A stretch of DNA of 64,000 bases from Eledone cirrhosa. Taxonomy: Eukaryota. The position numbers were made by a program, and so were the translations under genes. Numbering within the stretch: position 1 is the first letter of the stretch; each line of letters begins with the position of its first letter. The stretch is taken from the NCBI GenBank assembly GCA_964016885.1, contig OZ024743.1, positions 180,606,001-180,670,000 on the forward strand, in the 5' to 3' direction. Shown here one piece after another: positions 193 to 61,906 of this stretch. The notes beneath the pieces were generated by a model, which saw only the letters and a list, made by a program, of their open reading frames with translations, was not told the origin of the DNA and made no database searches.

Positions 193-237
193 AATATTGG
201 ACTAGTTTCGATGTTGTTACATCTCATCAGCAATATT
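193..237 (-). ncRNA. Type I hammerhead ribozyme (inverted copy)
   Basis: Reverse complement of 644-688. Confidence 0.85.
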
Positions 238-643
238 CACCTATCCTCCGGCCTTTCTAGAGAATCGTAAAAGCACATATCGTTATATGCTTTTTCTATG
301 AAAATTAGTAGTGGGCAGACTAATTTGCATAGAGCGTGAGTACGTACCGGTTCAACGGAGACGATAAAATGTACACGTGTGTGTATTCATATGCATACTA
401 GTATTTCAGTATACATATGTGGATGTACATTTTTAACTTAATTGTTTAAGCGTCAGTCATACAAAAGTGAGTTACAAACGAAGCGAGGTTTAATTTCGTT
501 TCGTTATTTGTTTTTATCGTCTCCGTTGAACCGGTACGTACTCACGCTCTATACAAATTAGTCTGCCCACTACTAATTTTCATAGAAAAAGCATATAACG
601 AAATGTGCTTTTACGATTCTCTAGAAAGGCCGGAAGATAGGTA

Positions 644-688
644 AATATTGCTGATGAGATGTAACAACATCGAAACTAGTCCAATATT
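644..688 (+). ncRNA. Type I hammerhead ribozyme
   Basis: aatattg-CTGATGA-gatgt-aaca-acatc-GAAAC-ta-GTC-caatatt: intact core, 7-bp stem I, 5-bp stem II. Confidence 0.9.
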
Positions 689-1196
689 CCTTGTCTGGCT
701 TTCTGGAGAATAGAGGAAAGGTGTTTCCTCAAAAACCAGTATGACTCTAAAAACCGGTTTGTCTGTGTGTTTACATACAGAATAGCTGGACACTCACAGT
801 AAAGTGACCAGTGAAAAACTCGGTACATCTACATATGTACACGTGTGTGTATTCATATGCATACTAGTATTTCAGTATACATATGTGGATGTACATTTTT
901 AACTTAATTATATATACATACATATACATATATATATATATACATACACATACATATACATATATATATATATACATATACATACATATATATATACATA
1001 TACATACATATATTTGAAAATTGACCGGTTAATACATTTACATACATCTATAATATATTATTATATATTTGAAACCACGTGTTTTCGAACTTGTGAGTAC
1101 ATTTTCCTTTAACTACAAATTATTATTATATACTTTCGTCTTTTCATTAACTTAATTAATTTCAAATAACCAGAATATACATATATATATATATTC

Positions 1197-2678: not shown

Positions 2679-5468
2679 ATGAAAAATTTCAAAGCCATCC
2701 GTGCTGATCGCGCTGGCAGAAGAAAGGGCGGAACTGCCATTTATGTCCATAATTCTTTCTCAACAGAAGCTATGAACATATTCACTAATGGATACTGTGA
2801 GGCAGTCACTGTATTCAGTCAAACCAACAACCTATTAGTAGTTGGGCTCTATAGGCCACCCCAAACGCCTGTACCATGCTTCAAGGAATGCCTCAACAGC
2901 ATAAAGTGTTTCATCCAAGAGTGTCACCCTGACAACATCTTAATGATGGGGGACTTCAACCTCCCCGGAGTTGACTGGTCCACAAACAGCCTGCCACCAG
3001 GTTCTTCTGCCTCAACCTCTGACAGGGAAGCTGTGGAATCGCTTCTTGACTTCATGGATGATTTCTTCCTATCCCAACTGGTGCTCGAACCAACGAGGTG
3101 CCACAAAAACGTCCTAGACTTAATTTTCAGCAATCACACTGACAATATCCACAATATTGCAGTGGAGAAAACTATACTCTCTGATCATGACATGGTTCTC
3201 TGTGATCTGAGATTCCACCGTCCAATATACAAACCCAATGTCATCTCTCCTGTCCATCCGTTTGACGCTATGGATTTCCACAATGCAAACTGGGAAGCGA
3301 TCAGTCATGATCTTGCACATGTCGACTGGTCCTTCACGCACACTCATACACCCACTAACATCAAAAAGTCCTGGCAGACATTTGTGGACACTGTTACAAA
3401 CATATGTGCTAAACACACCCCATTAAGAACTATAAACAAATCTAAGAGCAGAATCCCTAGAAATAGAAAAACGCTCATCAGAAAAATTAAGAGAACGAAC
3501 AAAAAAATCAACAAGCTGAAATACTGTCAGCAGCAACACATCAACTTGACTGCCATTTCATCACTAGAGATTAAAAAACATAACCTCCAAAACAACATAA
3601 TGTCCCTCATCAACAATCAGAGATGAGCTGAAGAGGCCTGGGCCATTGAGAAGATCAAACTCAATCCCAAAGTGTTCTTTTCATTTGCAAAAAAACACAA
3701 AATCACTGGCTCTACTGTTGGCCCTCTAATTGATGAAAATGGCACTCTTCAAGACAATGCTAAAACCATGGGTGAGATACTGCAGAAACAATACTGCTCT
3801 GTTTTCAGCAATCCTGATATGGCCGATCTGGGCTGTATCGGCGATGTTACTCCCCATTACACCTTATCGGACATAACGTTTGGCGCCCCTGATGTCTTGG
3901 CGGCAATAAAGGAAATCAAGCATAATTCAGCAGTAGGTTCCGATAGGTTCCCTGCTTGTGTCTTGAAGGCGTGTCAACACCAACTTGCATCTCCTCTTGC
4001 CAATCTGTGGCGGAACTCACTGGATGCTGGATATGTGCCAGAAAACCTTCTATCCCAGTCTGTTGTCCCAGTTTTCAAAAAGGGAAACAAATCCCTTGCC
4101 GTGAATTACCGTCCAATCTCACTCACCTCTCATATCATTAAGGTATTTGAGAGAGTGGTGAGATCGCGAATGACCCACTTCCTTGAGAGTAACAATATGC
4201 TGAACTCCAACCAGCATGGATTCCGTAATGGAAGGGATTGCCTGACGCAGCTACTGCATCACTTTGATGACATTTTGAGAGCCTTGGGAGAGGGTTCCAA
4301 CACTGATGTTATCTACCTTGATTTCAGCAAGGCCTTTGACAGGGTTGATCATAACATTCTACTGAGAAAGCTATCCAATATTGGTGTCACTGGAAAGCTG
4401 CTGCAGTGGATCAAGAGCTTCCTGTCAAACAGAACCCAACATGTTGTAGTTGAGGGAGTCAAATCCAGCCCAGCCAAAGTCAGTAGTGGGGTCCCACAGG
4501 GCACTGTGTTGGGCCCACTTCTCTTCATCATCTATATTAATGACATCACTGACATCATCAAACACAGCAACATTAAAATTTTCGCTGATGATTCCAAGCT
4601 CCAAAAGGTCGTCAATGGCGTGGATGACCAGATAAGCCTTCAGTCAGACCTACTGGCTGTTTCCCAATGGGCGGAAAAGAACAACATGTTACTGAACGAA
4701 GACAAATTCGAACTGATCCACTTTGGAAAAGAAGATGCTCTGAAACTCCCGTACTCCCTTCCCTCCGGGGAAACTCTCGTGGCATCTAACAACATCAGAG
4801 ACTTGGGAGTAACCGTGGACAGCAACATAAGCTGGACCACGCATATAAGCAGCAAAGTTGACATGGCCCGCAGAATGTGTTCCTGGATCCTCAGAACCTT
4901 CCAGTCGAGAGATTCCCGCACCATTATCCTTCTCTTCTCTACTTTCGCCCGACCACACCTTGAATACTGTTGTCCACTGTGGTCTCCCCACACTAAACAA
5001 AGTATCATGAAACTTGAAACTCCTCAAAGGGCAATCACGAAAAAGATAGATGGCATGTCAGACCTTGACTACTGGGGTCGATTAGAAAACCTGAAACTTT
5101 ACTCACTCCAACGTCGCCGTGAGCGTTATATTATCTGCATGATGTGGAAAATGTTCCATCATCACTGCCCAAATGATGTTGGCATCGCCTTCAAGATACA
5201 CCCAAGGCTTGGGCCCCGTGCTATCCGTCCCATTCAAAAATCTAAATCGCAACTCATAACAACAATACGGCACAAATATTTCACCTCAATCGGCCCTGCT
5301 CTCTTCAACATCACACCAGGACACGTCAAAACAGAAACTGACCACACAAAATTCAAGAAGTCTTTGGACAAATTCCTCCAAGTAATCCCGGACAAACCAC
5401 CCACACCCGGATATGTCTCCGCAAACAGTAATTCTCTTCTCGAATGGGCCATGGTGCCCAAATCCTGA
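2679..5468 (+). pseudogene. LINE ORF2 (APE endonuclease + reverse transcriptase) with an in-frame TGA at 3624-3626
   Basis: RADR..RKGG, YRPP, MGDFN, LDLIF, SDH (APE); [32 protein letters not shown] (RT). Confidence 0.93.
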
Positions 5469-5553
5469 ATTGAAAGACTTCGCCAGGTGGTGCTATTAAG
5501 TTAGACATGGCCTGGGCCAATACTGGCCAAAACATTTCAAAGTTATTCAAAGT

Positions 5554-5611
5554 TATATATATGTACATACATATATATATATATGTATGTACATATATAT
5601 ATATGTACATA

Positions 5612-5642
<31 letters not shown>

Positions 5643-5726
5643 GTACATATATATATATATATGTACATATATATATATACATGTACATATATATATATAC
5701 ATGTACATATATATATATATATGTAC

Positions 5727-5757
<31 letters not shown>

Positions 5758-5802
5758 CATATATATACATGTACATATATATATGTACATATATATATAT
5801 AT
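5554..5802. repeat. (TA)n microsatellite with TGTACA interruptions
   Basis: Direct reading. Confidence 0.95.
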
Positions 5803-6424
5803 AATATGAAATACGTCCTTTCACGCACAAGGCGCCAAGGTACGCATGTATTGTTCAACCAAGTGCCAGTGTGGTTCAATGGCGGGTTAATAAATTAACG
5901 CGCCAGAACAAATATAAACAAGGTTTAGTAAATAATGAAAAAGTTTCAAAATAAATTTTAAAAAATTGACATTACCTACTATAGTTACCTTTACCGATCG
6001 GGATTCGAAACCGATCGGTAAAGGTAACTATAGTAGGTAAAGTCAATTTTTTAAAATTTATTTTGAAACTTTTTCATTATTTACTAAACCTTGTTTATAT
6101 TTGTTCTGGCTCGTTAATTTATTAACCCGCCATTGAACCACACTGGCACTTGGTTGAACAATACATGCGTACCTTGGCGCCTTGTGCGTGAAAGGACGTA
6201 TTTCATATTACTACTACCCCCACAAACGTTGAGAACAAACCGGGTCATTCCGACTGCTGCTGATAACAGCGGTGGCTAGTTTGACCTACCTCCTTTTGCC
6301 TCTATCTTTACTACGGCCCTTGATAAACCTGTTCTACATCATCCACTCTCATCCCAGGAACAGTCTTTGATAGCGCTAGTTTGTGATTTAAATTCAGGAA
6401 TTTTATATTCTTTGAATGAAAAGA

Positions 6425-6508
6425 ACCTTCTGACGAGAATCTCTCTTTGCAACGAAGGCCGTATGGCCTACGTTTTATTTTTGGGATTCGAAACCGATCG
6501 GTAAAGGT
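6425..6508 (+). ncRNA. Type I HHR with extended stem II
   Basis: acctt-CTGACGA-gaatctc...gggattc-GAAAC-cgatcg-GTA-aaggt. Confidence 0.8.
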
Positions 6509-6907
6509 AACTATAGTAGGTAAAGTCAATTTTTTAAAATTTATTTTGAAACTTTTTCATTATTTACTAAACCTTGTTTATATTTGTTCTGGCTCGTTAA
6601 TTTATTAACCCGCCATTGAACCACACTGGCACTTGGTTGAACAATACATGCGTACCTTGGCGCCTTGTGCGTGAAAGGACGTATTTCATATTACTACTAC
6701 CTCCACAAACGTTGAGAACAAACCGGGTCATTCCGACTGCTGCTGATAACAGCGGTGGCTAGTTTGACCTACCTCCTTTTGCCTCTATCTTTACTACGGC
6801 CCTTGATAAACCTGTTCTACATCATCCACTCTCATCCCAGGAACAGTCTTTGATAGCGCTAGTTTGTGATTTAAATTCAGGAATTTTATATTCTTTGAAT
6901 GAAAAGA

Positions 6908-6991
6908 ACCTTCTGACGAGAATCTCTCTTTGCAACGAAGGCCGTATGGCCTACGTTTTATTTTTGGGATTCGAAACCGATCGGTAAAGGT
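6908..6991 (+). ncRNA. Type I HHR with extended stem II (copy 2)
   Basis: Same motif as 6425-6508. Confidence 0.8.
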
Positions 6992-7390
6992 AACTATAGT
7001 AGGTAAAGTCAATTTTTTAAAATTTATTTTGAAACTTTTTCATTATTTACTAAACCTTGTTTATATTTGTTCTGGCTCGTTAATTTATTAACCCGCCATT
7101 GAACCACACTGGCACTTGGTTGAACAATACATGCGTACCTTGGCGCCTTGTGCGTGAAAGGACGTATTTCATATTACTACTACCTCCACAAACGTTGAGA
7201 ACAAACCGGGTCATTCCGACTGCTGCTGATAACAGCGGTGGCTAGTTTGACCTACCTCCTTTTGCCTCTATCTTTACTACGGCCCTTGATAAACCTGTTC
7301 TACATCATCCACTCTCATCCCAGGAACAGTCTTTGATAGCGCTAGTTTGTGATTTAAATTCAGGAATTTTATATTCTTTGAATGAAAAGG

Positions 7391-7474
7391 ACCTTCTGAC
7401 GAGAATCTCTCTTTGCAACGAAGGCCGTATGGCCTACGTTTTATTTTTGGGATTCGAAACCGATCGGTAAAGGT
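7391..7474 (+). ncRNA. Type I HHR with extended stem II (copy 3)
   Basis: Same motif as 6425-6508. Confidence 0.8.
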
Positions 7475-7542
7475 AACTATAGTAGGTAAAGTCAATTTTT
7501 TAAAATTTATTTTGAAACTTTTTCATTATTTACTAAACCTTG

Positions 7543-7543
<1 letters not shown>

Positions 7544-7604
<61 letters not shown>

Positions 7605-7669
7605 TATATGTACATATATATATATATATAAAAATATATATATATATATATGTACATATATATATCTAC

Positions 7670-7704
<35 letters not shown>

Positions 7705-7733
7705 CATATATATACATATATATGTACATATAT

Positions 7734-7765
<32 letters not shown>

Positions 7766-7783
7766 GTACATATATATATCTAC

Positions 7784-7835
<52 letters not shown>

Positions 7836-7983
7836 GTACATTTATATATATATATGTACATATATATATATGTACATATATATATATATATATGTACATA
7901 CATATATATGTACATATATATATATGTACATATATATATATAAATATATATATATATATGTACATATATATATCTACATATAT

Positions 7984-8037
<54 letters not shown>

Positions 8038-8243
8038 GTACATATATATATATATATATGTACATATATATATATACGTACATATATATATATATGTACA
8101 TATATATATATATATATGTACATATATATATATACGTACATATATATATATATATGTACATATATATATATATATGTGTACATATATATATATATATGTA
8201 CATATATATATATATATGTACATATATATATATATATATATAC

Positions 8244-8284
<41 letters not shown>

Positions 8285-8394
8285 TATATATATATATATG
8301 TACATATATTTATATACATATATGTACATATATATATATATATATGGACATACATATATATACATATATATGTACATACATATATATATAGATA

Positions 8395-8466
<72 letters not shown>

Positions 8467-8486
8467 TACACATATATATATATATA

Positions 8487-8522
<36 letters not shown>

Positions 8523-8548
8523 TATATGTACATACATATATATATATG

Positions 8549-8594
<46 letters not shown>

Positions 8595-8632
8595 TACATA
8601 TATATATATATATGTACATATATATATATATA

Positions 8633-8687
<55 letters not shown>
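7544..8687. repeat. (TA)n microsatellite with TGTACA interruptions
   Basis: Direct reading. Confidence 0.95.
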
Positions 8688-8688
<1 letters not shown>

Positions 8689-9402
8689 ACTTAACTTTGA
8701 ATAACTTTGAAATGTTTTGGCCAGTATTGGCCCAGGCCATATCTAACTTAATAGCACCATCTGGCGAAGTCTTTCAATTCAGGATTTGGGCACCGTGGCC
8801 CATTCGAGAAAAGAATTACTGTTTGCGGAGACATATCCGGGTGTGGGTGGTTTGTCCGGGATTACTTTGAGGAATTTGTCCAAAGACATCTTGAATTTTG
8901 TGTGGTCAGTTTCTGTTTTGACGTGTCCTGGTGTGATGTTGAAGAGAGCAGGGCCGATTGAGGTGAAATAATTGTGCCGTATTGTTGTTATGAGTTGCGA
9001 TTTAGATTTTTGTATGGGACGGATAGCACGGGGCCCAAGCCTTGGGTGTATCTTGAAGGCGATGCCAACATCATTTGGGCAGTGATGATGGAACTTTTTC
9101 CACATCATGCAGATAATATAACGCTAACGGCGACGTTGAAGTAAGTAAAGTTTCAGCTTTTCTAGTCGACCCCAGTAGTCAAGGTCTGACATTCCATCTA
9201 TCTTTTTCGTGATTGCCCTTTGAGGAGCTTCAAGTTTCATGATACTTTGTTTCGTGTGGGGAGACCACAGTGGACAACAGTATTCAAGGTGTGGTCGGGC
9301 AAAAGTAGAGAAGAGAAGGATAATGGTGTGGGAATCTCTCGACTGGAAGGTTCTGAGGATCCAGGAACACATTCTGCGGGCCATGTCAACTTTGCTGCTT
9401 AT
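8688..9402 (-). mobile_element. 5'-truncated LINE family 1 copy (RT C-terminus and 3' tail)
   Basis: Near-identical to about 4845-5553; both ends abut (TA)n. Confidence 0.93.
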
Positions 9403-10742
<1,340 letters not shown>

Positions 10743-10856
10743 TGACACCAGTTCCTCAGTGAACTAACAACCCAACAAGGAACTGGGCATATCAGAGTAT
10801 TGACAATATTATACACCTAAACAACATATGTACATGTCTATACCATACTAATTCAA

Positions 10857-10911
10857 ACTGCCTGAAGAGGTCACAGCCAAAGATGGCTGTCACTGAAATA
10901 TATATAGCAGT
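10857..10911 (+). ncRNA. Type I HHR in a short insert of about 215 bp (10743-10960)
   Basis: actgc-CTGAAGA-ggtcacagcc-aaagat-ggctgtcact-GAAAT-atat-ATA-gcagt followed by AATAAA; homologue at 36834-36889. Confidence 0.7.
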
Positions 10912-10963
10912 AATAAACGAAGCTAAATTTTAATCATTTGACTTTTATTTAACTTTATTGTAC

Positions 10964-10995
<32 letters not shown>

Positions 10996-11123: not shown

Positions 11124-11321
11124 GTACATATATATATATATATGTAGATATATATATATATATATCTACATATATATATATATATATATCTACATATATA
11201 TATATATATATATATGTAGATATATATATATATATCTACATATATATATATATATATATCTACATATATATATATCTACATTTATATATATCTACATATA
11301 TATATATATATACATATATAT

Positions 11322-11735
11322 ATAAACACGCTTTAGCAAATAATGAAAAAGTTTCAAAATAAATTTTAAAAAATTAACTTTACCTACTATAGTTATCTTT
11401 ACCGATCGGTTTCGAATCCCAAAAATAAACGGGGGCCTTACGGCCTTCGTTGCAAAGAGAGATTCTCGTCAGAAGCTTCTTTTCGTTCGAAGAATATAAA
11501 ATTCTTGAATTTAAATTACGAACTAGCGCTATTCAAAACTGTTCCGGAGATGAGGGTGAAATGAGGTGGAATCAATTTTGTCAAGGGCCGAAGTAAAGAT
11601 AGAGGCAGAAGGAGGTAGGTCAAACTAGCAGCGGCCATCACTAGCAGCAGTCAGGACGAGCAAGTTTGCACTCGAGAGGAGTTTAGTAAAAATAGGATAT
11701 GTATTCCTTCACGTACAGGCGCAAAGAGACATATG

Positions 11736-11737
<2 letters not shown>
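11322..11737 (-). mobile_element. Diverged single copy of the family B unit, with HHR at 11395-11477
   Basis: Colinear with the 483-bp unit; HHR region strongly conserved, flanks diverged. Confidence 0.85.
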
Positions 11738-11780
<43 letters not shown>

Positions 11781-16637: not shown

Positions 16638-19096
16638 TTAATTAGGTTTATAATATTTAAATGTTTTTTTTAGTTTATGATTACACGATATAATTAATTC
16701 CTGTCGTTTATTTAATAAGATATCCTTAGATTTCATTATTTCGAATAGTTCTTGGGAACATAATCTACATTCATTTCTATTATTTTGATAAGGGGTGGCT
16801 CTTTTGAGCACACTCCAGGTCAAATCATATTCTATATTCTTATTTTTATAACTATTGATTTTTTCTGCTAGAGATGTTGTATTAGCCAGTGCGGCATTTT
16901 TAAAACTATGCTTGTGGGTATTAAACCTTGTCTTAAAATTGTTAGAGGTAGCTCCTATATATGAGCAAATAGAATCTTTAGTTTTAACATTACATTTATA
17001 GACTATGTTGTTAACAAGACAATTCCCTTTTAATGGGCAGTTTGCTTTGTTTCTACAGTTACATCCTTTCGTTAATTCTGTATTTGAGGAGATATTATGG
17101 TTAATTTGATGTACTGGTGGTATACTTATGGTTTTCTTACATTTATATGCATTATAGGCACTTATATTTTGTTTTATGTTATTTGTTGTAGAGTATGAGA
17201 ATTTAACTGTAGACCTATTTAAGATTTGATGGTATTTGTGGTTTGGCGGGAAGTTTTTCTCTAGGATATAAAAAAAATTTTTTAGCAATATTATCCTTAA
17301 TTTGTAAATTAAATGGAGCATTATACCAGGTAACCCGTCTATTACGGTTTCTATGTTGTTTATTATTTTTATTATTTTTATAGGTTGTATCGTGATTTTT
17401 ACTAGGAGGATTAATGTTAATGATCTCACCACAACCATTTTTAGTTATATTTGTAGATTTAGGTGTTTTATCCTTTTTATTAGGAGTTTTATTATTAATA
17501 TTTATTAGAGTTGTATGATGAGTAGTTTTTTGAGAGTTACTATACTTTATATTAGAAGATTTGGTATTTTGGGGTATAGTGTGGGTGGCATTTAGGTGTG
17601 TACTTTTCATTTGGTGTTTGTTGGTAATATTAGGTTGTATGCTTTCAGTATTTTTAGTGGAAGGTATATATTCTAATCTATTTTTGTGGCCACTTCTATC
17701 TAGAGCTTCGTTATAGAAGGTCGCATTTTTATCAAATACATCTTGGTTAGAAGAAAGGTTAGAAATTCTAAGTGATATATTATATGCAAGGTTTTTAAGG
17801 ATAGATTTAGGGTGATTAGATTGTGAGTGTATGTAATGTAAGTTTTGGTTAGGTTTATGGTAAGGTTGGTAGATACCCGTAGCTAAATCTAAAGTTATAT
17901 CTAGGAAATTTACTACTTGTTTTTTCAAAAGTAATATTAAGATTATAATAGTCTTTAAGGAAAGTTCTAATATGTTTTTTGTTTTTTTCAATTTCTGAAA
18001 GGCTAAGGTTGTTAGAAAGAAGAAGACAGTCATCACGATATAAACCACCTTTGAGGTGGGGAAAAGAGGCATTTATGTTGAAAAGGAGAAAGAGGCCCAC
18101 AAGATCAGTAATTTGGGCGGAATCGCTTGAACCCATAGTAATATCAAATAGATTACTATATGTGTTTCTGGTCCAGTATTCATTCTGAAATTCAATAAGT
18201 GTTAGTCTAGCATGTGTAATAATATTAATGTCATCCAAAGTTAAGTTAGATCTATTTTTAGCAAATATCAATGCTTTGTTCAGGAGTATAGGTGATATAG
18301 AAGAATAGTAATTATCTATATCAAATTGTAGAAATGAAGCAGAAGATTTACACCTAATATTTTTAAACCAGTTAATTACCTGGGAGGTGTTTTCCCAGAG
18401 TGGTAAAATAACGTGTTTTCTTATTTGTGGGATGACTCTATCTAAAATTTTTTTGCTAATTATTCCAATATCTGATTTGGAGGGACATATAAGTCTAATA
18501 GAAGGATTTGAGTTAAAGTTTGATTTGTGATCCTTCAGGTTGAAGTGTGGTCTTTTCAATGCCAAAGGTTCAGTTCTATCTTCAATGTTTAGTTTTTTTA
18601 CTATGTTGTGTGTTTTGTTGTTGATGTTGGTGAGTGACGCATTATTAGATTTTTTATAATTTTTTCTGAGTTCTTTATATATGAACTCGTTATAATGTTC
18701 AATATCCATATGATACAAGTTACCAGTTTTGTCCGAGTGGACATGGATTTTTTTAGACTTTTTTAGGTCCAATAGGGTAGAATCAAGGTCCTTTTGAAAG
18801 ACGGATTTATACTTTTTAAATTTGAGGTGTTTAATTAAATTAAAAAGGTCTTTCTCGAAGTCTTCAAGTAAAAAGTTGTGTGGTGGATTCTTGTAAGTAT
18901 TGAAATCATACATATATTTCCGATCTGCTTGTTTAGATTTTCTATCGAAGTGGTAGGCTCTCCATCTAACCCTTCTGATAAAATTATTAGTTTTCTGAAT
19001 CATAAGGAGTAAGAAGTCATCCTTAGAAGGTATTGGTATGTTTTTTAAGGAGGTTCCTAAATATTGTTTTTCCATTGTGATATGGGTGATGGACAA
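16638..19096 (-). pseudogene. PLE RT-GIY-YIG ORF with two frameshifts (about 17920 and about 17275, both in homopolymer runs)
   Basis: SLKNIPIP, RLICPSKSDIG, FDIDNYYSSI, FDITMGS.DSA, GLYRDD, FLDITL, WYNAPF, CNC..CP..CL, IVYKC...YIG...FKTR..H. Confidence 0.9.
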
Positions 19097-19426
19097 TTGA
19101 AAGAGCTCAACTAAATGTATATGGGTTTATAAAATCATACATATATATGTATATACATAAATATAAAATTAATACACACATACAGTACAAAAATACGAAT
19201 ATTTCCGTGAAAATAGGAGCAAAATTATGTAGATAAATCTACCAAGAGTTTACGGTAGTGTCCAATCCGTATGAAGAACTCAATGTATTCCGGATATCAT
19301 GGAAAGAAGAGATGTAATGAAAAATCACTTTCGGTGAAAGATAAACGGTATACAGAGTCAAGATAAAATATTAAACAAATAATGAATAAACAATGAGACA
19401 GTTCCTTATATTAAACAAAAAAAGTT

Positions 19427-21155: not shown

Positions 21156-21202
21156 GTACATATATATATATATTATATATATATATGTACATATATATAT
21201 CA

Positions 21203-21771
21203 ATTTTACGTCTTTTATATTATTGTTCTGCACCCTCCTGCATTGAACCACCTAGGTACTATGACATAACCTGTGTATTTGCTGGCATGGACGTGCATCT
21301 GTGCGCCTATGTTAGTTGATATATTAAATTATCTATATTTATCTCCAAATCACTGATTTGTCGAGCAAACCTGCCAAAACCACTTCAAAATTTTTTTTGG
21401 GGTGTTAGTAGGCGTCAGTCATCTTACCATCCCATTCCTTCTAACTAGCCTCTATGTCACGTGATTGATTCTTTAGAATCGGCCATTTGACTGGAAGCAG
21501 TGAGAATTTCAGTACATAGAATCCAGTCCTCGCCTAGCTGTTCTTTCAACCGAATTATTATTTTTATATGAGCCGCCAGTGTCCGCGAATTGCCTGGAGG
21601 CTCAGCTGAGAATAGACTCCCTGATGACGCAATGAATTCTCGACAGTTGGATTATGTAACTGTCTTTATCCCATTGCAGAAACTAATTAGTTGGAGTGAA
21701 AATTTAAGTAAGTAAGTAAAAAATTTTTTTAAAAATTTTTTTAAAAAATATTTTCTTATTTTACGTCTTTT
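21203..21771 (+). mobile_element. 555-bp non-coding monomer (family C) with a short terminal direct repeat and an HHR
   Basis: attttacgtctttt at 21203 and 21758; flanked by (TA)n. Confidence 0.75.
21616..21697 (+). ncRNA. Type I HHR with branched stem II
   Basis: actcc-CTGATGA-c-gcaatg..[gacagtt/aactgtc hairpin]..cattgc-a-GAAAC-taatta-GTT-ggagt. Confidence 0.82.
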
Positions 21772-36833: not shown

Positions 36834-36889
36834 ACTGCTATATATATTTCGATGATAGCCATTGAATGGCTATGACCTCATCAGGCAGT
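36834..36889 (-). ncRNA. Type I HHR (same family as 10857)
   Basis: actgc-CTGATGA-ggtcatagcc-attcaat-ggctatcatc-GAAAT-atat-ATA-gcagt then AATAAA. Confidence 0.75.
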
Positions 36890-40788: not shown

Positions 40789-43326
40789 ATAACTTTGAAT
40801 AACTTTGAAATGTTTTGGCCAGTATTGGCCCAGGCCATGTCTAACTTAATAGCACCACCTGGCGAAGTCTTTCAATTCAGGATTTGGTCACCATGGCCCA
40901 TTCGAGAAGAGAATTACTGTTTGCGGTAACATATCCGGGTGTGGGTGGTTTGTCCGGGATTACTTGGAGGAATTTGTCCAAAGACTTCTTGAATTTTGTG
41001 TGGTCAGTTTCTGTTTTGACGTGTCCTGGTGTGATGTTGAAGAGAGCAGGGCCGATTGAGGTGAAATAATTGTGCCGTATTGTTGTTATGAGTTGCGATT
41101 TAGATTTTTGAATGGGACGGATAGCACGGGGCCCAAGCCTTGGGTGTATCTTGAAGGCGATGCCAACATCATTTGGGCAGTGATGATGGAACATTTTCCA
41201 CATCATGCAGATAATATAACGCTCACGGCGACGTTGGAGTGAGTAAAGTTTCAGGTTTTCTAATCGACCCCAGTAGTCAAGGTCTGACATGCCATCTATC
41301 TTTTTCGTGATTGCCCTTTGAGGAGCTTCAAGTTTCATGATACTTTGTTTCGTGTGGGGAGACCACAGTGGACAACAGTATTCAAGGTGTGGTCGGGCGA
41401 AAGTAGAGAAGAGAAGGATAATGGTGCGGGAATCTCTCGACTGGAAGGTTCTGAGGATCCAGGAACACATTCTGCGGGCCATGTCAACTTTGCTGCTTAT
41501 ATGCGTGGTCCAGCTTATGTTGCTGTCCACGGTTACTCCCAAGTCTCTGATGTTGTTAGATGCCACGAGAGTTTCCCCGGAGGGAAGGGAGTACGGGAGT
41601 TTCAGAGCATCCTCTTTTCCAAAGTGGATCAGTTCGAATTTGTCTTCGTTCAGTAACATGTTGTTCTTTTCTGCCCATTGAGTAACAGCCAGTAGGTCTG
41701 ACTGAAGGCTTATCCGGTCATCCACGCCATTGATGACCTTTTGGAGCTTGGAATCATCAGCGAAAATTTTAATGTTGCTGTGTTTGATGATGTCAGTGAT
41801 GTCATTAATATAGATGATGAAGAGAAGTTGGCCCAACACAGTGCCTTGTGGGACCCCACTACTGACTTTGGCTGGGCTTGATTTGACTCCCTCAACTACA
41901 ACATGTTCGGTTCTGTTTGACAGGAAGCTCTTGATCCACTGCAGCAGCTTTCCAGTGACACCAATATTGGACAGCTTTCGCAGTAGAATGTTATGATCAA
42001 CCCTGTCAAAGGCCTTGCTGAAATCAAGGTAGATAACATCAGTGTTGGAACCCTCTCCCAAGGCTCCAAAATGTCATCAAAGTGATGCAGTAGCTGCGTC
42101 AGGCAATCCCTTCCATTACGGAATCCATGCTGGTTGGAGTTCAGCATATTGTTACTCTCAAGGAAGTGGGTCATTCGCGATCTCACCACTCGCTCAAATA
42201 CCTTAATGATATGAGAGGTGAGTGAGATTGGACGGTAATTCACGGCAAGGGATTTGTTTCCCTTTTTGAAAACTGGGACAACAGACTGGGATAGAAGGTT
42301 TTCTGGCACATATCCAGCAACCAGTGAGTTCCGCCACAGATTGGCAAGAGGAGATGCAAGTTGGTGTTGACACGCCTTCAAGACACAAGCAGGGAACCTA
42401 TCGGGACCTACTGCTGAATTATGCTTGATTTCCTTTATTGCCGCCAAGACATCAGGTGCGCCAAACGTTATGTCCGATAAGGTGTAATGGGGAGTAACAT
42501 CGCCGATACAGCCCAGATCGGCCAAATCAGGATTGCTGAAAACAGAGCAGTATTGTTTCTGCAGTATCTCACCCATGGTTTTAGCATTGTCTTGAAGAGT
42601 GCCATTTTCATCAATTAGAGGGCCAACAGTAGAGCCAGTGATTTTGTGTTTTTTTGCAAATGAAAAGAACACTTTGGGATTGAGTTTGATCTTCTCAATG
42701 GCCCAGGCCTCTTCAGCTCTTCTCTGATTGTTGATGAGGGACATTATGTTGTTTTGGAGGTTATGTTTTTTAATCTCTAGTGATGAAATGGCAGTCAAGT
42801 TGATGTGTTGCTGCTGACAGTATTTCAGCTTGTTGATTTTTTTGTTCGTTCTCTTAATTTTTCTGATGAGCGTTTTTCTATTTCTAGGGATTCTGCTCTT
42901 AGATTTGTTTATAGTTCTTAATGGGGTGTGTTTAGCACATATGTTTGTAACAGTGTCCACAAATGTCTGCCAGGACTTTTTGATGTTAGTGGGTGTATGA
43001 GTGTGCGTGAAGGACCAGTCGACATGTGCAAGATCATGACTGATCGCTTCCCAGTTTGCATTGTGGAAATCCATAGCGTCAAACGGATGGACAGGAGAGA
43101 TGACATTGGGTTTGTATATTGGACGGTGGAATCTCAGATCACAGAGAACCATGTCATGATCAGAGAGTAGAGTTTTCTCCACTGCAATATTGTGGATATT
43201 GTCAGTGTGATTGCTGAAAATTAAGTCTAGGACGTTTTTGTGGCACCTGGTTGGTTCGAGCACCAGTTGGGATAGGAAGAAATCATCCATGAAGTCAAGA
43301 AGCGATTCCACAGCTTCCCTGTCAGG
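40789..43326 (-). mobile_element. 5'-truncated LINE family 1 copy (ORF2 with a 1-bp frameshift near 42066)
   Basis: Near-identical to about 3019-5553; both ends lie in (TA)n. Confidence 0.94.
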
Positions 43327-44296
<970 letters not shown>

Positions 44297-52439: not shown

Positions 52440-55364
52440 AGCAGAGTCATTCGAAGGTCAAAGGATATTTTTCAGCTTTTGTCTTATACGGAGAAGTGCG
52501 TGTGTGTGTGTGTGTGTATAAGTCTCTTTGTATGTTGATGTACGCGTGTGTTTGTGTATATATGTGTGTGGGGGGGGGGGCCAGTATTTTTTTCCCCCTA
52601 GTAAAATGGTGTACATTATTCGATTTTTTCAGTAAAATCGGTTCTCTTAATAGAACATCAAAAATCTTAACAATAAAAGGTGTGAAATGATATTCACTAT
52701 ATATATACACACACACACCGACCCCACTACGTCCTAACTACTATGAAATGAAGGAAAACATCACAGACTTCTGTAGAAAGTTACGACTTAGTGAACAACT
52801 ATTCGACCAGTACAATGAGGATGAATCATTAGCCAGAAATAGAAGCAATTACACCCCTTCAAAAGGTAGAAATAAAATCCTGGACGAATTCTGTGAACAC
52901 ATCACAAACTTCCCTTACCAACACTTGCACAGACAAAAACACAAGCCAAACCTCAACAAGAAAGAATGGGAAGAATTAAATAGATTAAAAACCGACAGAA
53001 CCATTACAATTAAAGAGGCTGATAAAGGGAGTACAGTAGTCCTAATGGAGACAGAATTCTATATCAACTTAGCGCTCTCCACTCTGGAAAACGAAACATA
53101 CTACGAAAAGGCTGAACACTACAATCAACAGAAAATTATGAGAAACCTAAAAACTCTAATCAACCAATACAAAGAAGGACTCACTAACAAGGAATTCAGC
53201 TTCATCGCAGACTTCACAAGTAAATCCAGCCTTTTCTACGGTATCCCTAAAGTACATAAAAGCGAATCAATCAGTAAGGCATGCAAGGAAGCCACAGACA
53301 TAGTCATCAATGTCCCCTCACCCAATGATCTCAAATTAAGACCTATAATAGCAGGCCCCGCTTGCGAAACGCACCGTCTTAGCAACTTCATTGATACCCT
53401 TCTCAAACCCTTCCTCAAGCACATCAAAAGCTATATAAGGGACGACCTAGATATGCTCAATCACCTCCCTAATATGCCACTTTCTGAACAAACCCTACTA
53501 GTGACGTTCGATGTAGTCAACCTATACTCCAACATCCCCCACAACCTAGGAATAGAAGCTATCCAATTCTGGCTGGATAATTTCCACAATGAACTCCCAC
53601 AACGCATCAAAAAAGAATTCGTGATAGAGGGACTCAAATTTATCTTGGAGAACAATTACTTCGTTTTCAATAACAAACCCTACAGGCAGAAATCTGGGAC
53701 CGCTATGGGAACGAAAACAGCCCCTACTTATGCCAACCTAGTCATGGGATACCTGGAAATCACCCTCTACACTAAAGTCCTAAACAAATTTGGAAACACC
53801 CTCCACTTACACATTGAAAGGAACTGGAAGCGATATCTAGATGACTGCTTCATCCTTTGGCACGAAAACATCGAAAAACTTAAAGAATTTCACACCCTTA
53901 TAAATGGGCTCAACACAAATATTAACTTCACGATGGAATACAGCCATCAACAACTCCCCTTCCTCGACATCCTCATTAAGATCCATAACAAAAAAATAGA
54001 AACAGACATATACTACAAGCCCACAGACTCCAAGCAATACCTCTCCTTCAACTCTTGCCACCCTAGACACGTTAAAATTAATATTCCCTACAACTTAGCC
54101 AAGAGAATCTGTACTATAGTCTCCAATAAAAACATCTGCTACTTACGGCTACAAGAACTAAAGGACACACTCATAGGCAGGGACTACCCTGCATCACTAA
54201 TTGACAATGGAATCCAACGTGCCCTAAAACTCAGTACCCAGGACCTTAGACACCCTAAAGTAAATCAACCAAAACTAAAAGCTCTTCCATACATCTCCAC
54301 ACACAACCCCCTCAACAATGAGGCCTTTGACACCATCCTCCAGAACATCCCTGTATTGAAAAAGGACCATAGAATGAACCAAATTCTACGAACACACGAT
54401 ATCATAAAGAGCAAAAGACAATCCAAGTCAATCAAAAACATCTTAACACATGCCAAAGTACTGCCAACCACAACAACGAAACCCACAGTAAAAAAATGCG
54501 ATAGACCCAACTGTGGCATTTGCATCAACCTAATAGAGGGTTCGGAATTCTATTTCAAAGATGGACAACGTTTTATAGTAAAACACAATTTCACATGTGC
54601 ATCGGAAAATCTAATATATGTATTAACTTGTTCAGGTTGTCGAGAACAATACATAGGCCAGACCAAAAACAGCCTCCGCCAACGCATGACTGTCCATAGA
54701 TCCCAAATTAAAATACGGGAATACAGGAAAATACCACTGAGTGAACACATTGATACCTGTGCCGCCCAAAATCATCCCAACTTCAGAATCTTTCCCCTCT
54801 ACAAATTTAAAGATAATGCCACCCACACCCAGCGCATCAGCAAGGAATCTTACTTCATTAACAAATACGGACCCCGTCTAAACACTTCTCCCTAAGACGA
54901 ACCCACAACATACACACGTCAACATACATACCTACATCAGCACACATCTCTACCCACATATAAACACAATGACACACGTAAACACACATGCTCTATGGTG
55001 CAATACAAAAAAATATATGTGCATATATATGTATGTATATATGTATATATGTATATATATGTGTGTAGTGAATATATGTGTGTGTGTGTGTATATATAGT
55101 GAATATCATTTCACACCTTTTATTGTTAAGATTTTTGATGTTCTATTAAGAGAACCGATTTTACTGAAAAAATCGAATAATGTACACCATTTTACCAGGG
55201 GGAAAAATACTGGTCCCCCCCCCCCCCCCACACACACACATATATACACAAACACACGCGTACATCAACATACAAAGAGACTTATACACACACACACACA
55301 CACGCACTTCTCCGTATAAGACAAAAGCTGAAAAATATCCTTTGAGCTTCGAATGACTCTGCTG

Positions 55365-57668: not shown

Positions 57669-57694
57669 CTATATGTATATATATATATATATAT

Positions 57695-60600
57695 AGAGAA
57701 AAGATGAATATAAAATGAAAGTGCTTTTTTTTAAAAGGAATTTATTAGGTATTGACATATGTTTCTGTAACAGACGGAATACCTATGTATCGCTGCTTGC
57801 TAATCATATAATGTTAGCAAGTATTCGATAGCAAATGTATAATCAGTTGTCACTTCTTCAGAGATTTTGGATAAATTGGATAAAATCAGAAAAATTGAAG
57901 TATTTATATTAGTAATAGAGGAAGAAGAGAGGGGATAGTATATGACAGATGGTAATTCAATTTACTGCTAATCAAGTATATAAAGGGTTTCTAATGAGAA
58001 TACCATGAGTAAATGGTTCATTTTATCTAAATAAGAATTTTTTGGGAGTGCCAATTTTAATCTCTACTTGACCAATTGGACAGTGGACAGGGCTGGTTAT
58101 TTGGTGTAGTAGTATTAATTATAAAGTGTCAATTGGGGAAGGGGGAGATTTCGATTGCTACTGAATAACATCAATGCTAGTAGCCAGCTGGTATATGCAT
58201 TAGGGAATTGAATTAAGAAATCAGAAATCTCATTTTATCTATAGCAGTTTATATTAAATGGTAAATAATAGAAGAGGTGATAGAATTAAGACTAATAGAG
58301 AATGTTAATATCTATTTTGACAATCAAACGGAGATAGAGACAGGCGTTCAATCCTGGTAGTATTTATAATATGAAAATGTAGATTTTAAGCGATGGGTAC
58401 AGTATAACGATCGCTCTATTCTGTTATTTAATAAAATGTTTTTGGATTTCATAATACAAAATAATTCCACATTACATAATATACAAAATTCCTGTCCGTG
58501 GGTATATGGGGGGGGGGGGGGCATCCGCTTTTATATCCCATTTTAGGTGAAATTGTTGGTTATTTTCACGCAGCTGCCAAACCTTGTCTCCGAGTGTTGT
58601 TACATAACGCTGGTTTTCATGTTTTATCGAGTAACGATGTCTAATTCAGCATACGCCTCTAAAATAGAAAGGCACCAATTGGATATGTCGTTAAAAAACA
58701 TACCTATTCAGGCAAAAAGGGAATATATTCTAGGTATGATACGAAGGACCAATGATTTTATTCGACGAATCAGATGGAAAACATTCTATTTTGACAAAAG
58801 CCGTATAAACCAAACATCGGATCTTAACAAGGATAAATTTGGATTTAAATCTTACTAAAACCCACCCTCAAACCCACTTTTGGATGCATTTGAACAAGAC
58901 CTAATGGATATGATCATGGAGATCAAATTTACAAAACGGAAAAACAATAAACTACAGAATGACATCACGGCACTGCTCAATAATCTAAAAAACGCCAATG
59001 GAATTATTGTTAGAGCAGACAAAACATCAAACGTATAAACCATGGATGTGGACACTTACAATAACTTCATCCGTAAGGAATTGCATAAAAAATACAAGAA
59101 AACTAATGAAGCTACACTTAAAAACATCAACAACTCGGCATGTGAAATTGTTAAAAAACTTTGTATTGACGATAGAACGCAACCCTTAACACCAGCTATA
59201 CCATCCTTCAACCTGAAGGACCACAAGGTAAACTTCGATACTAACCCTAAGACTAGACTTATATGCCCCTCTAAATCTGATATAGGCAAAATTAGCAAAT
59301 ATATACTAGACAGAATTATCCCCCAAGTTAAGGTTAAAGTAGAAATTAAACTATGGGGTAACACTCATGAAGCAATAAGATGGTTTAATAACATTACTGA
59401 TAAGAAAAAAATCAAAATTTATTCAGTTTGATATTGATGAATATTATTCCTCAATTTCACCTGATACTCTACATGAAGCTCTTTCGTTCGCTAAGGCTAA
59501 TTCCGACCTTACGGATGCTGAAATTAAAATTATTATGGAAGCGAGGAAAACTATAGTTAAATTCGATGATAGCTACTGGGTTCGCAAAGATAGACCTTCT
59601 AATTTTGATATTACTATGGGTTCTAATGATTCGGCGGAAGTAACAGATCTTGTGGGAATTTATATCACCCACAGACTACAAGGAAAATTCAAGGATCTCC
59701 ACGGTGGAATCTACCGTGATGATGCGCTCCTATTAGTTAAGCATATGAATAACCAGAATTTAGAAAGGATGCGTAAAAATATCAGAAAGCTTTTTAAGGA
59801 ACTAGGATTAAATATTACATTTGAATATAACCTCAAAGAGGTCAATTTCCTTGATGTTACTTTGAATCTCAATACAGATACAATTAAACCGTTCCATAAA
59901 CTAAATGAGAACCTTAAATATGTAAATACGAGTTCTAACCATCCACTCTCTATAATTAAATCCATCCCTAGAAATGTTTCTCTTAGAATCTCCCGCCTGT
60001 CGTCCAACCAACAAACCTTCAAAGAACATGCCGAATATTATGATGATGCACTTAGGAAAGCCGGACACCTAGATAATATAGAGAATATAGTCGAAGATCA
60101 CCAAAACACACAAAATAAATCCCATAGGAGTTGAAATAGCACAGAATCACCACCATACATACACTACCGCAATAGACACAATAATAGTCGTACACCACCA
60201 AACAGAAGGCGATGTAAAGAGTATATTTGGTACAACCCGGTCTATAACAACTCTATTGAAACCAATCTACCCTCACAATTCTTCCGATTAGTTAAAAAAC
60301 ACTTTCCAACATCACATAAATATAATAAAATCTTAAACCCTAACACTATTCGACTTTCATATTCAACCGCCCCTAATATTGAACAACATATAAAAAAGCT
60401 TAACGCAAAACGGTTGTATAAACGCCTTCCAACACATAACAATACACGTAAAACATTAGCTATAACATCACAAAACAACAAACAACATCCTGTCCTACCT
60501 AAGCAACCTCATCAACCCATCCATGACAATACAACAACGCAAAATTATAATTGCAACTGTGTCCAACCAGGAATATGTCCGTTGAACAATCAGTGTCTTG

Positions 60601-61655
60601 AACGCAACATTGTATACAAATGTACTATCGAATCGGATAGACAGAAGTGGTACAATGTGGGATCTACAGCCACCTCCTTCAAATCACGCCTTTATAGACA
60701 TCGTTACTCGATAAAACATGAAAACCAGCGTTATGTAACAACACTCACAGACAAGGCTTGGCAGCTGCGTGAAAATAACCAACAATTTCACCTAAAATGG
60801 GATATAATAGCGGATGCCCCCCCCCCCCCCCCCCCCCCCCCCCATATACCCACGGACAGGAATTTTGTATATTATGTAATGTGGAATTATTTTGTATTAT
60901 GAAATCCAAAAACATTTTATTAAATAACAGAATAGGGCGATCGTTATACTGTAACCATCGCTTAAAATCTACATTTTCATATTATAAATACTACCAGGAT
61001 TGAACGCCTGTTTCTATCTCCGTTTGATTGTCAAAATAGATATTAACATTCTCTATTAGTCTTAATTCTATCACCTCTTCTATTATTTACCATTTAATAT
61101 AAACTGCTATAGATAAAATGAGATTTCTGATTTCTTAATTCAATTCCCTAATGCATATACCAGCTGGCTACTAGCATTGATGTTATTCAGTAGCAATCGA
61201 AATCTCCCCCTTCCCCAATTGACACTTTATAATTAATACTACTACACCAAATAACCAGCCCTGTCCACTGTCCAATTGGTCAAGTAGAGATTAAAATTGG
61301 CACTCCCAAAAAATTCTTATTTAGATAAAATGAACCATTTACTCATGGTATTCTCATTAGAAACCCTTTATATACTTGATTAGCAGTAAATTGAATTACC
61401 ATCTGTCATATACTATCCCCTCTCTTCTTCCTCTATTACTAATATAAATACTTCAATTTTTCTGATTTTATCCAATTTATCCAAAATCTCTGAAGAAGTG
61501 ACAACTGATTATACATTTGCTATCGAATACTTGCTAACATTATATGATTACGCCAGCAACGGTACATAGGTATTCGGTCTGTTACAGAAACATATGTCAA
61601 TACGTAATAAATTCCTTTTAAAAAAAAGCACTTTCATTTTATATTCATCCTTTCT
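57695..61655 (+). mobile_element. Second Naiad-type PLE with inverted arm (about 57695-58643 is the reverse complement of about 60693-61655)
   Basis: Inverted arm plus RT/GIY-YIG pseudogene; HHR-like motif with a 90-nt stem II at 61490-61598 and 57754-57861. Confidence 0.9.
58644..61003 (+). pseudogene. PLE RT-GIY-YIG ORF with stops and frameshifts
   Basis: SLKNIPI, RLICPSKSDIG, FDITMGSNDSAEV, GIYRDD, FLDVTL, WYNP, CNC..CP..CL, IVYKC. Confidence 0.9.
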
Positions 61656-61758
61656 ACATTTTCTCCGGAATATAATTTATACTCGTTGAGCAAACCTACA
61701 CGTACGCTGTTCATCTCTAACGTAACGATATATTATCACTACATTATTGATAACCTGA

Positions 61759-61906
<148 letters not shown>

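Follow-up and report, generated by a model that had tools for sequence, protein, structure and literature searches.

Non-LTR retrozymes, and the RNA circles as which metazoan retrozymes accumulate, have already been described (PMC7229834), and it has been proposed that they originated from the terminal repeats of Penelope-like elements (bioRxiv 10.64898/2026.07.22.740005). Penelope-type insertions show a distinctive pattern composed of a partial tandem, an inverted truncated copy, and a "tail" at one end (PMC8557442, PMC3846280). In vitro, this tail is delimited by two internal start sites, cutting and extension take place on both target strands, and dimer formation is predicted; for the Poseidon element used in that work, hammerhead cleavage was dispensable (PMC11167929). 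Cleavage of metazoan type I hammerheads as dimers has also been described (PMC4209133), but only one of nine Xenopus retrozyme dimers was cleaved in vitro (bioRxiv 2026.07.22.740005). The parts of these papers drawn on here raise three questions, namely, whether circles serve as integration templates, which enzyme mobilizes retrozymes, and how the Penelope tail and inverted arm are made.

The locus described here lies in a 64,000-nucleotide stretch of the Eledone cirrhosa genome (contig OZ024743.1, positions 180,606,001 to 180,670,000; hereafter, the window), the features of which are listed in Table 1. Tandem Repeats Finder identified a tandem at 6000-7549 with a period of 483 bp, 3.2 copies, and 99% matches. 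We call the family of this array R1 and number its unit so that u1 is window position 6003, 6486, 6969, or 7452; in this numbering, start site A is u94-102 and start site B is u205-214. The flanks are (TA)n on either side, where any target site duplication is masked, and the locus has no terminal direct repeat except the tandem itself. An earlier note on this DNA had described a head-to-tail array of ~3.2 483-bp units in (TA)n. The period, copy number, and (TA)n setting stand, but positions 5802-6001 turned out to be an inverted arm outside the tandem, which carries two substitutions not found in the other copies. The note's count of one hammerhead per unit agrees with the three complete type I copies (cores at 6430, 6913, and 7396 on the plus strand), so that at least two consecutive units hold a complete motif; to these must be added a 3' half at 6000-6025, and the inverted arm contains no complete hammerhead. 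The absence of an ORF was borne out, as the longest ATG frames over four joined unit rounds are 13 aa (plus strand) and 44 aa (minus strand). Being noncoding, the R1 repeat lacks the reverse transcriptase (RT) plus GIY-YIG frame of an autonomous Penelope-like element. The window also contains a LINE with endonuclease-like and RT frames that ends in (TA)n (2679-5555, plus; 8688-9395, minus; 40790-43330, minus), and the array is flanked by the 3' end of this LINE and by an inverted 3' fragment.

Table 1. Features of the R1 locus and of related elements in the window
Feature	Position	Strand	Remarks
Left (TA)n-type target	5554..5801	.	Doubles as the 3' tail of a LINE
Inverted arm B	5802..6001	-	u9-208; outer end is start site B and abuts (TA)n; without a complete hammerhead
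Head-to-head arm junction	6000..6001	.	2-nt overlap; adjoins palindromic stem III
Arm A	6000..7549	+	3.2 tandem 483-bp units; outer end is start site A (u98); last 6 bases common with (TA)n
"Tail" between start sites A and B, first internal copy	6101..6208	+	108 nt
Tail-opening hairpin	6103-6138	+	Common to three families
Hammerhead 1 (type I)	6425..6508	+	Stem I 5' strand 6425-6429; core 6430-6436; predicted GUA cut after 6503
Stems of hammerhead 1	6437-6489; 6493-6502	+	53-nt stem II with inner hairpin (6437-6489); GAAA; palindromic stem III (6493-6502)
Hammerhead 2 (type I)	6908..6991	+	Predicted cut after 6986
Hammerhead 3 (type I)	7391..7474	+	Predicted cut after 7469
Predicted 483-nt monomer between two cut sites	6504..6986	+	Fold z of -2.25; 3/100 shuffles fold equally well
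Right (TA)n-type target	7550..8688	.	
Older R1 copy	11320..11740	-	Under one unit; ends at site A into (TA)n; 77-100% identity by region
Sister retrozyme R3	21200..21770	+	Core at ~21621; long stem II; palindromic stem III; ends at own site A
PLE-D, candidate parent and mobilizer	57690..61764	+	Hydra-clade Penelope-like element, broken copy
PLE-D ends	~57690; 61764	+	Inverted arm at own site A (~57690); main arm at own site B (61764)
PLE-D hammerhead-like core	61490-61571		Stem II of ~89 nt; palindromic stem III; weak stem I

R1 copies are dispersed and mobile. A search of the 3.0-Gb genome returned 1,634 R1 candidates, the best 40 of which were scored and are all ~99% identical. Exact patterns recovered 264 site A ends and 421 site A read-throughs genome-wide, as well as 83 overlapping matches to site B ends of the youngest subfamily, which represent ~43 places. 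Hundreds of insertions elsewhere thus share common end rules, as expected from the earlier suggestion of a mobile repeat rather than a tandem confined to this locus. R1 is very probably a non-LTR retrozyme, a known class, and the array in the window is a young insertion of it. We analyzed 83 loci, comprising the 40 best (a set skewed toward long arrays), 14 picked by a B end, 23 picked for having an A end, and an additional 6 arrays. Two side matches in L039 and one in L052, which belong to other families, were excluded prior to counting, as were a 26-nt piece in L120 and 7 loci that duplicated earlier ones; the analysis of 134 arm ends was done without L096. Two sister families, R2 and R3, have the same layout as R1, with a long-stem-II hammerhead followed by an AT-rich stretch, site A, a hairpin, and site B. 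The tail hairpin pattern has 12,543 matches in the genome, compared with 0 for a reversed control, and R2 and R3 make up most of the first 100 motif matches listed. Copies of R2 or R3 often adjoin R1 within one (TA)n tract (window 21200-21770; L039, L040, L044, and L052). Short type I hammerheads of other families are found at window positions 10745-10965 (plus), 36839-36884 (minus), 200-240 (minus), and 645-690 (plus), and the two at 200-690 together form an inverted insertion with two arms.

The ends of R1 insertions obey a strict rule. An A end is combined with a B end in 53 of the 54 two-armed insertions; A+A and B+B do not occur, and the exception has a B end together with an end against unrelated DNA. 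The rule held for 29/29 two-armed insertions in an unselected set, and 68/69 arms from 40 loci not picked by their ends terminate at A or B. The circular permutation of array ends that the earlier note had envisaged does not occur, since the outer ends lie at two fixed unit positions, 108 to 113 nt apart, and only the inner ends vary. Most primed ends (125/135) run directly into a TA repeat by pattern match, the remaining 10 being AT-rich variants, and the junctions between arms have either a 0- to 8-nt overlap or 1 to 9 additional bases. Microhomology alone does not set the start site, as a control position that is equally TA-like (u405) has 0 ends genome-wide. Classical twin priming on one linear strand was likewise rejected, as an arm stops at the start site of the other in 6/53 insertions, which is the level expected by chance. 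An inverted 5'-truncated arm together with a tail at one end only was found in 53/54 two-armed insertions; this end pattern is the Penelope tail signature, and R1 integration is of the Penelope type.

The R1 hammerhead is predicted to be self-cutting, with a core and stems that are intact and covary. At the Rfam gathering score, the array had no match; at low stringency, no hammerhead family was returned, and the only matches were hairpin-type (microRNA-type) ones centered on the inversion junction, which we rejected as an identity because they represent the inversion hairpin. In 12 representatives of three sister families, 15/17 hammerhead pairs vary on both sides, in line with the earlier proposal that the RNA structure is under selection, and 92% of cells pair, compared with 30 to 50% in slid controls. 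The covariation score was 0.79 (0.28 when shuffled), although these figures do not amount to a probability, as the rows are mutually related and the structure was taken from R1. Of 384 matches (overlapping loci included), 379 have a stem III that forms a perfect 10-nt palindrome, and this stem occurs in four versions, the central bases of which differ too. This conservation fits the described cleavage of type I hammerheads as dimers (PMC4209133), and R1 may be cut in the same way. When two hammerheads were co-folded, the best structure paired via the insert hairpin rather than through a stem III duplex, so the case for dimer cleavage is built on the conservation of the palindrome and on that report. 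The stem II insert folds as a hairpin in 8/8 inserts from different subfamilies (z of -2.4 to -8.0), while its sequence and loop are free; across the 83 loci, inherited variants are as frequent per base in the insert (13 in 38 nt) as in the body (61 in 216 nt). The GNRA loop that the earlier note pointed out in this insert is not conserved, and it is the hairpin fold that persists. The note had also held that the older copy at ~11320-11740 preserves the hammerhead and its insert better than the flanks. Identity in this copy is indeed 92-100% for the hammerhead strands and 89% for the insert, compared with 77% for the body, but the flank at u24-98 is preserved to the same degree (95%), and one of the stem I pairs is disrupted.

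Each insertion essentially carries one haplotype. Among multicopy variants, 185/192 are fixed in their own array and 94/97 are present in both arms. For private variants, which occur at one locus only, the corresponding counts are 14/16 and 4/4; the u155 variant of the window, for example, is present in 4/4 copies here and in 0/73 other loci covering the site. Mismatches per site amount to 0.0015 within arms, rise slightly to 0.0022 when the two arms are compared, and reach 0.0073 when loci are compared, and the first 40 arrays comprise 21 haplotypes. A variant that appears in every unit and in both arms requires a bottleneck of one unit, which a circle supplies in each round. The haplotypes thus favor rolling-circle copying of a monomer, and we consider it reasonably probable that R1 is copied from a single 483-nt circular RNA. 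Both arms cross the start site of the other in 24/53 insertions. Inner ends are enriched about threefold at u9-35 (27, compared with 8.9 expected, in an interval picked after looking), while 213/240 arm passes read on through the cut site; occasional cutting or pausing would both fit.

The strongest rival keeps the element and the enzyme but makes the template an uncut multimer transcribed from a source array that was already homogeneous, with cutting being rare and circles being by-products. Uncut RNA is the main template of the Poseidon element in vitro (PMC11167929), and the frequent read-through of the cut site would agree with this; the exact cut site junctions described below fit equally well. 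A homogeneous source array would also yield homogeneous daughters. In addition, our census covers only part of the family, as 83 loci were analyzed compared with at least 264 site A ends in one assembly, and a source array with a "private" variant may be unsampled; of the four private variants seen in two arms, that of L089 could reflect a single physical position of which two copies were made. Single-unit variants recur at another locus in 10/95 cases, a count for which no chance expectation was computed. The dispensability of cleavage for Poseidon and the low share of Xenopus dimers that cleaved likewise count against the circle. This rival must nevertheless explain how new variants reach all units and both arms, as the fixed private variants have done, and how 21 haplotypes came to exist among 40 arrays; if the arms copy separate stretches, it would also need linear RNA of up to 9.2 units. 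We regard it as a serious but rather unlikely alternative to the circle.

Alternatively, a cut linear monomer could be the template if the enzyme jumps from its 5' end to its 3' end, which would produce tandems without a covalent circle. This would account for one haplotype per insertion and for the enrichment of inner ends near the cut site, where 4 fall at u17-20 compared with 1.3 expected. End-to-end template jumps, however, usually add or lose bases. Cut site passes are exact in 213/217 cases, with 0 indels among the 217, which argues against such jumping and makes it improbable. About as improbable, or slightly more so, is that short insertions were expanded in place by unequal crossover, with the inverted arm arising through fold-back self-priming (compare the antisense self-priming in PMC3846280). 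Local amplification has been proposed (bioRxiv 10.64898/2026.07.22.740005). Of the 192 multicopy variants, 7 are not fixed; two arrays, L043 and L118, have a variant in only 2 units, which fits local duplication, and both inner ends lie no more than 10 nt apart at 7 junctions, compared with 3.1 expected (P of 0.03). However, most single-unit variants have not spread inside arrays (109 singletons), and in-place expansion does not predict the strict A+B rule. Moreover, neither arm is contained in the other in 10/53 insertions, so these arms are not copies of each other and fold-back is excluded for them. Finally, local duplication or an assembly artifact, to which the long (TA)n around the locus and the two substitutions specific to the inverted arm might point, is barely credible here and is refuted for the family by hundreds of dispersed insertions that obey the same end rules.

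A candidate relative and mobilizer of R1, PLE-D, is present in the window. It carries RWK, a CxCx5C linker, and DKT (the last read by eye from the DNA), targets (TA)n, and is placed in the Hydra clade by motifs rather than by a tree, using the motif definitions of PMC8557442. The PLE-D family has 2,347 candidates with a median identity of 98.5%, and 781-aa open frames are found in 13 of the 150 matches listed. Its unit is cyclic (~3.1 kb), with a 3' end that continues into the beginning of the ORF. Sites A and B of PLE-D are 110 nt apart, compared with 108 nt in R1, with both ends in (TA)n, and the A+B rule holds for 12/12 two-armed copies in which both ends are seen. The cut-to-A distance is 58 nt, compared with 80 nt in R1, and the hammerhead-like core of PLE-D could be degenerate or differently wired. 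Alignment to PLE-D in register across A and B gave z values of 3.4 for R1, 2.4 for R2, and 1.8 for R3, compared with under 1 for a PLE-C control. This similarity is weak, AT-rich, and found after looking, and an unrelated pair reached a z of 3.3 in an earlier control; thus, the alignment by itself is weak, and the spacing and end rule weigh more. A short motif just past B is common to R1, R2, R3, and PLE-D, with a chance of 0.00025 in shuffles (the motif having been picked afterward). Searching for a partner with a short-stem-II version of the R1 hammerhead gave 4 matches, all of which are relatives or rearranged copies, and no coding link was visible in 36 stretches around the tail motif.

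The genome has at least two active Penelope-like families besides PLE-D. PLE-C (window 52691-54895, plus strand, with flanks to ~56370 and an inverted arm from ~51910) encodes a 734-aa RT plus GIY-YIG frame; its family is very active, with 20,017 candidates and many 784-aa frames, and has its ends in (TA)n, where they seem to fall at two sites ~35 nt apart. No canonical hammerhead was seen in its 3' region. Despite its activity, PLE-C was rejected as the partner, as it has no sequence in common with the retrozyme. PLE-A, a second, frameshifted Hydra-type element (window 16638-19126, minus strand), was rejected because it has no similarity to the retrozyme ends. A further young Hydra-type family (L045:1125-1526 and L220-L249) has many 758-aa frames and a long, microsatellite-filled 3' region.

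Taking the circle as the preferred template, we think it fairly probable that R1 was pasted into (TA)n by a Penelope-like RT and endonuclease, likely from the 483-nt circle, and that the mobilizing enzyme probably belongs to the Hydra clade. An array would first be transcribed, and tandem hammerheads, probably paired via palindromic stem III, would excise one unit, which would then be ligated into a circle. Cleavage of both (TA)n strands by a dimeric enzyme would leave two DNA ends, which would prime at A and B of one RNA. Each cDNA would circle the template for 0.1 to 8.8 turns, and the two cDNA ends would be joined head to head by end joining at short microhomologies. A more specific version is tentative and, in our estimate, has less than an even chance; according to it, a Hydra-clade Penelope-like dimer primes one 483-nt circle at two fixed sites with a spacing of ~108 nt, each of which serves one of the DNA ends left by a double-strand cut in (TA)n, and rolls around the circle from both sites, and retrozymes are ORF-less descendants of the clade's cyclic unit. 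If true, this would provide genomic evidence for circular RNA as an integration template, account in a single step for both the Penelope tail and the head-to-head inversion, and identify an enzyme-RNA pair that could be reconstituted. Insertion of a retrozyme by a Penelope-like enzyme from a small RNA circle, which appears likely here, is a long-proposed route, and the class itself is known; what is added is the haplotype test and a partner candidate. Among the titles and abstract openings of a limited literature collection, we found no haplotype test of the circle, A+B rule, or Hydra partner, although Hydra tails and hammerheads may be listed in the supplements of PMC8557442. The interest of R1 lies in the indirect support that its haplotypes lend to a monomer template and in an enzyme candidate that can be tested. 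The youth of the family, the single haplotype of each insertion, the strictness of the two-site rule, and the candidate intact partner make all three questions raised in the cited papers testable in vitro.

The known systems close to R1 include the metazoan non-LTR retrozymes, which, in the portions of the two reports used here (Cervera and de la Pena 2020, PMC7229834; Li, Clavereau and Pollet 2026, bioRxiv 10.64898/2026.07.22.740005), are likewise noncoding tandems with one type I hammerhead per unit, dispersed, low in GC, and found alongside Penelope-like elements. The 483-bp unit falls inside the 51- to 972-bp range given for retrozymes (bioRxiv 10.64898/2026.07.22.740005). Unlike those retrozymes as presented there, R1 has a stem II of 53 nt that contains an inner hairpin and a palindromic stem III of 4 bp, and strict A+B two-armed insertions with one haplotype each are a feature of R1 that the same portions do not describe. 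Circles have been demonstrated for coral, mussel, and axolotl retrozymes (PMC7229834), whereas the R1 circle is inferred from genome sequence. With the endonuclease-containing Penelope-like elements of the Hydra clade (Craig et al. 2021, PMC8557442), R1 shares partial tandems adjoined by an inverted copy that is truncated at its 5' end, a one-ended tail, (TA)n, and a near-end hammerhead, but it differs from them in lacking RT and GIY-YIG coding. Its tail of ~108 nt exceeds the 30 to 40 nt reported as typical (PMC8557442), and that of the Hydra-type PLE-D in the window is also long. Another close system is Poseidon PAc of Anolis, studied in vitro (Frangieh et al. 2024, PMC11167929), in which, as in R1, two internal starts downstream of the hammerhead set the tail, cutting and extension involve both strands of the target, and the target is AT-rich. 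In that study, the start sites show no strand preference, whereas in R1 each site is used once per informative insertion; and while that study favors an uncut multimer as the template, the R1 haplotypes favor a monomer.
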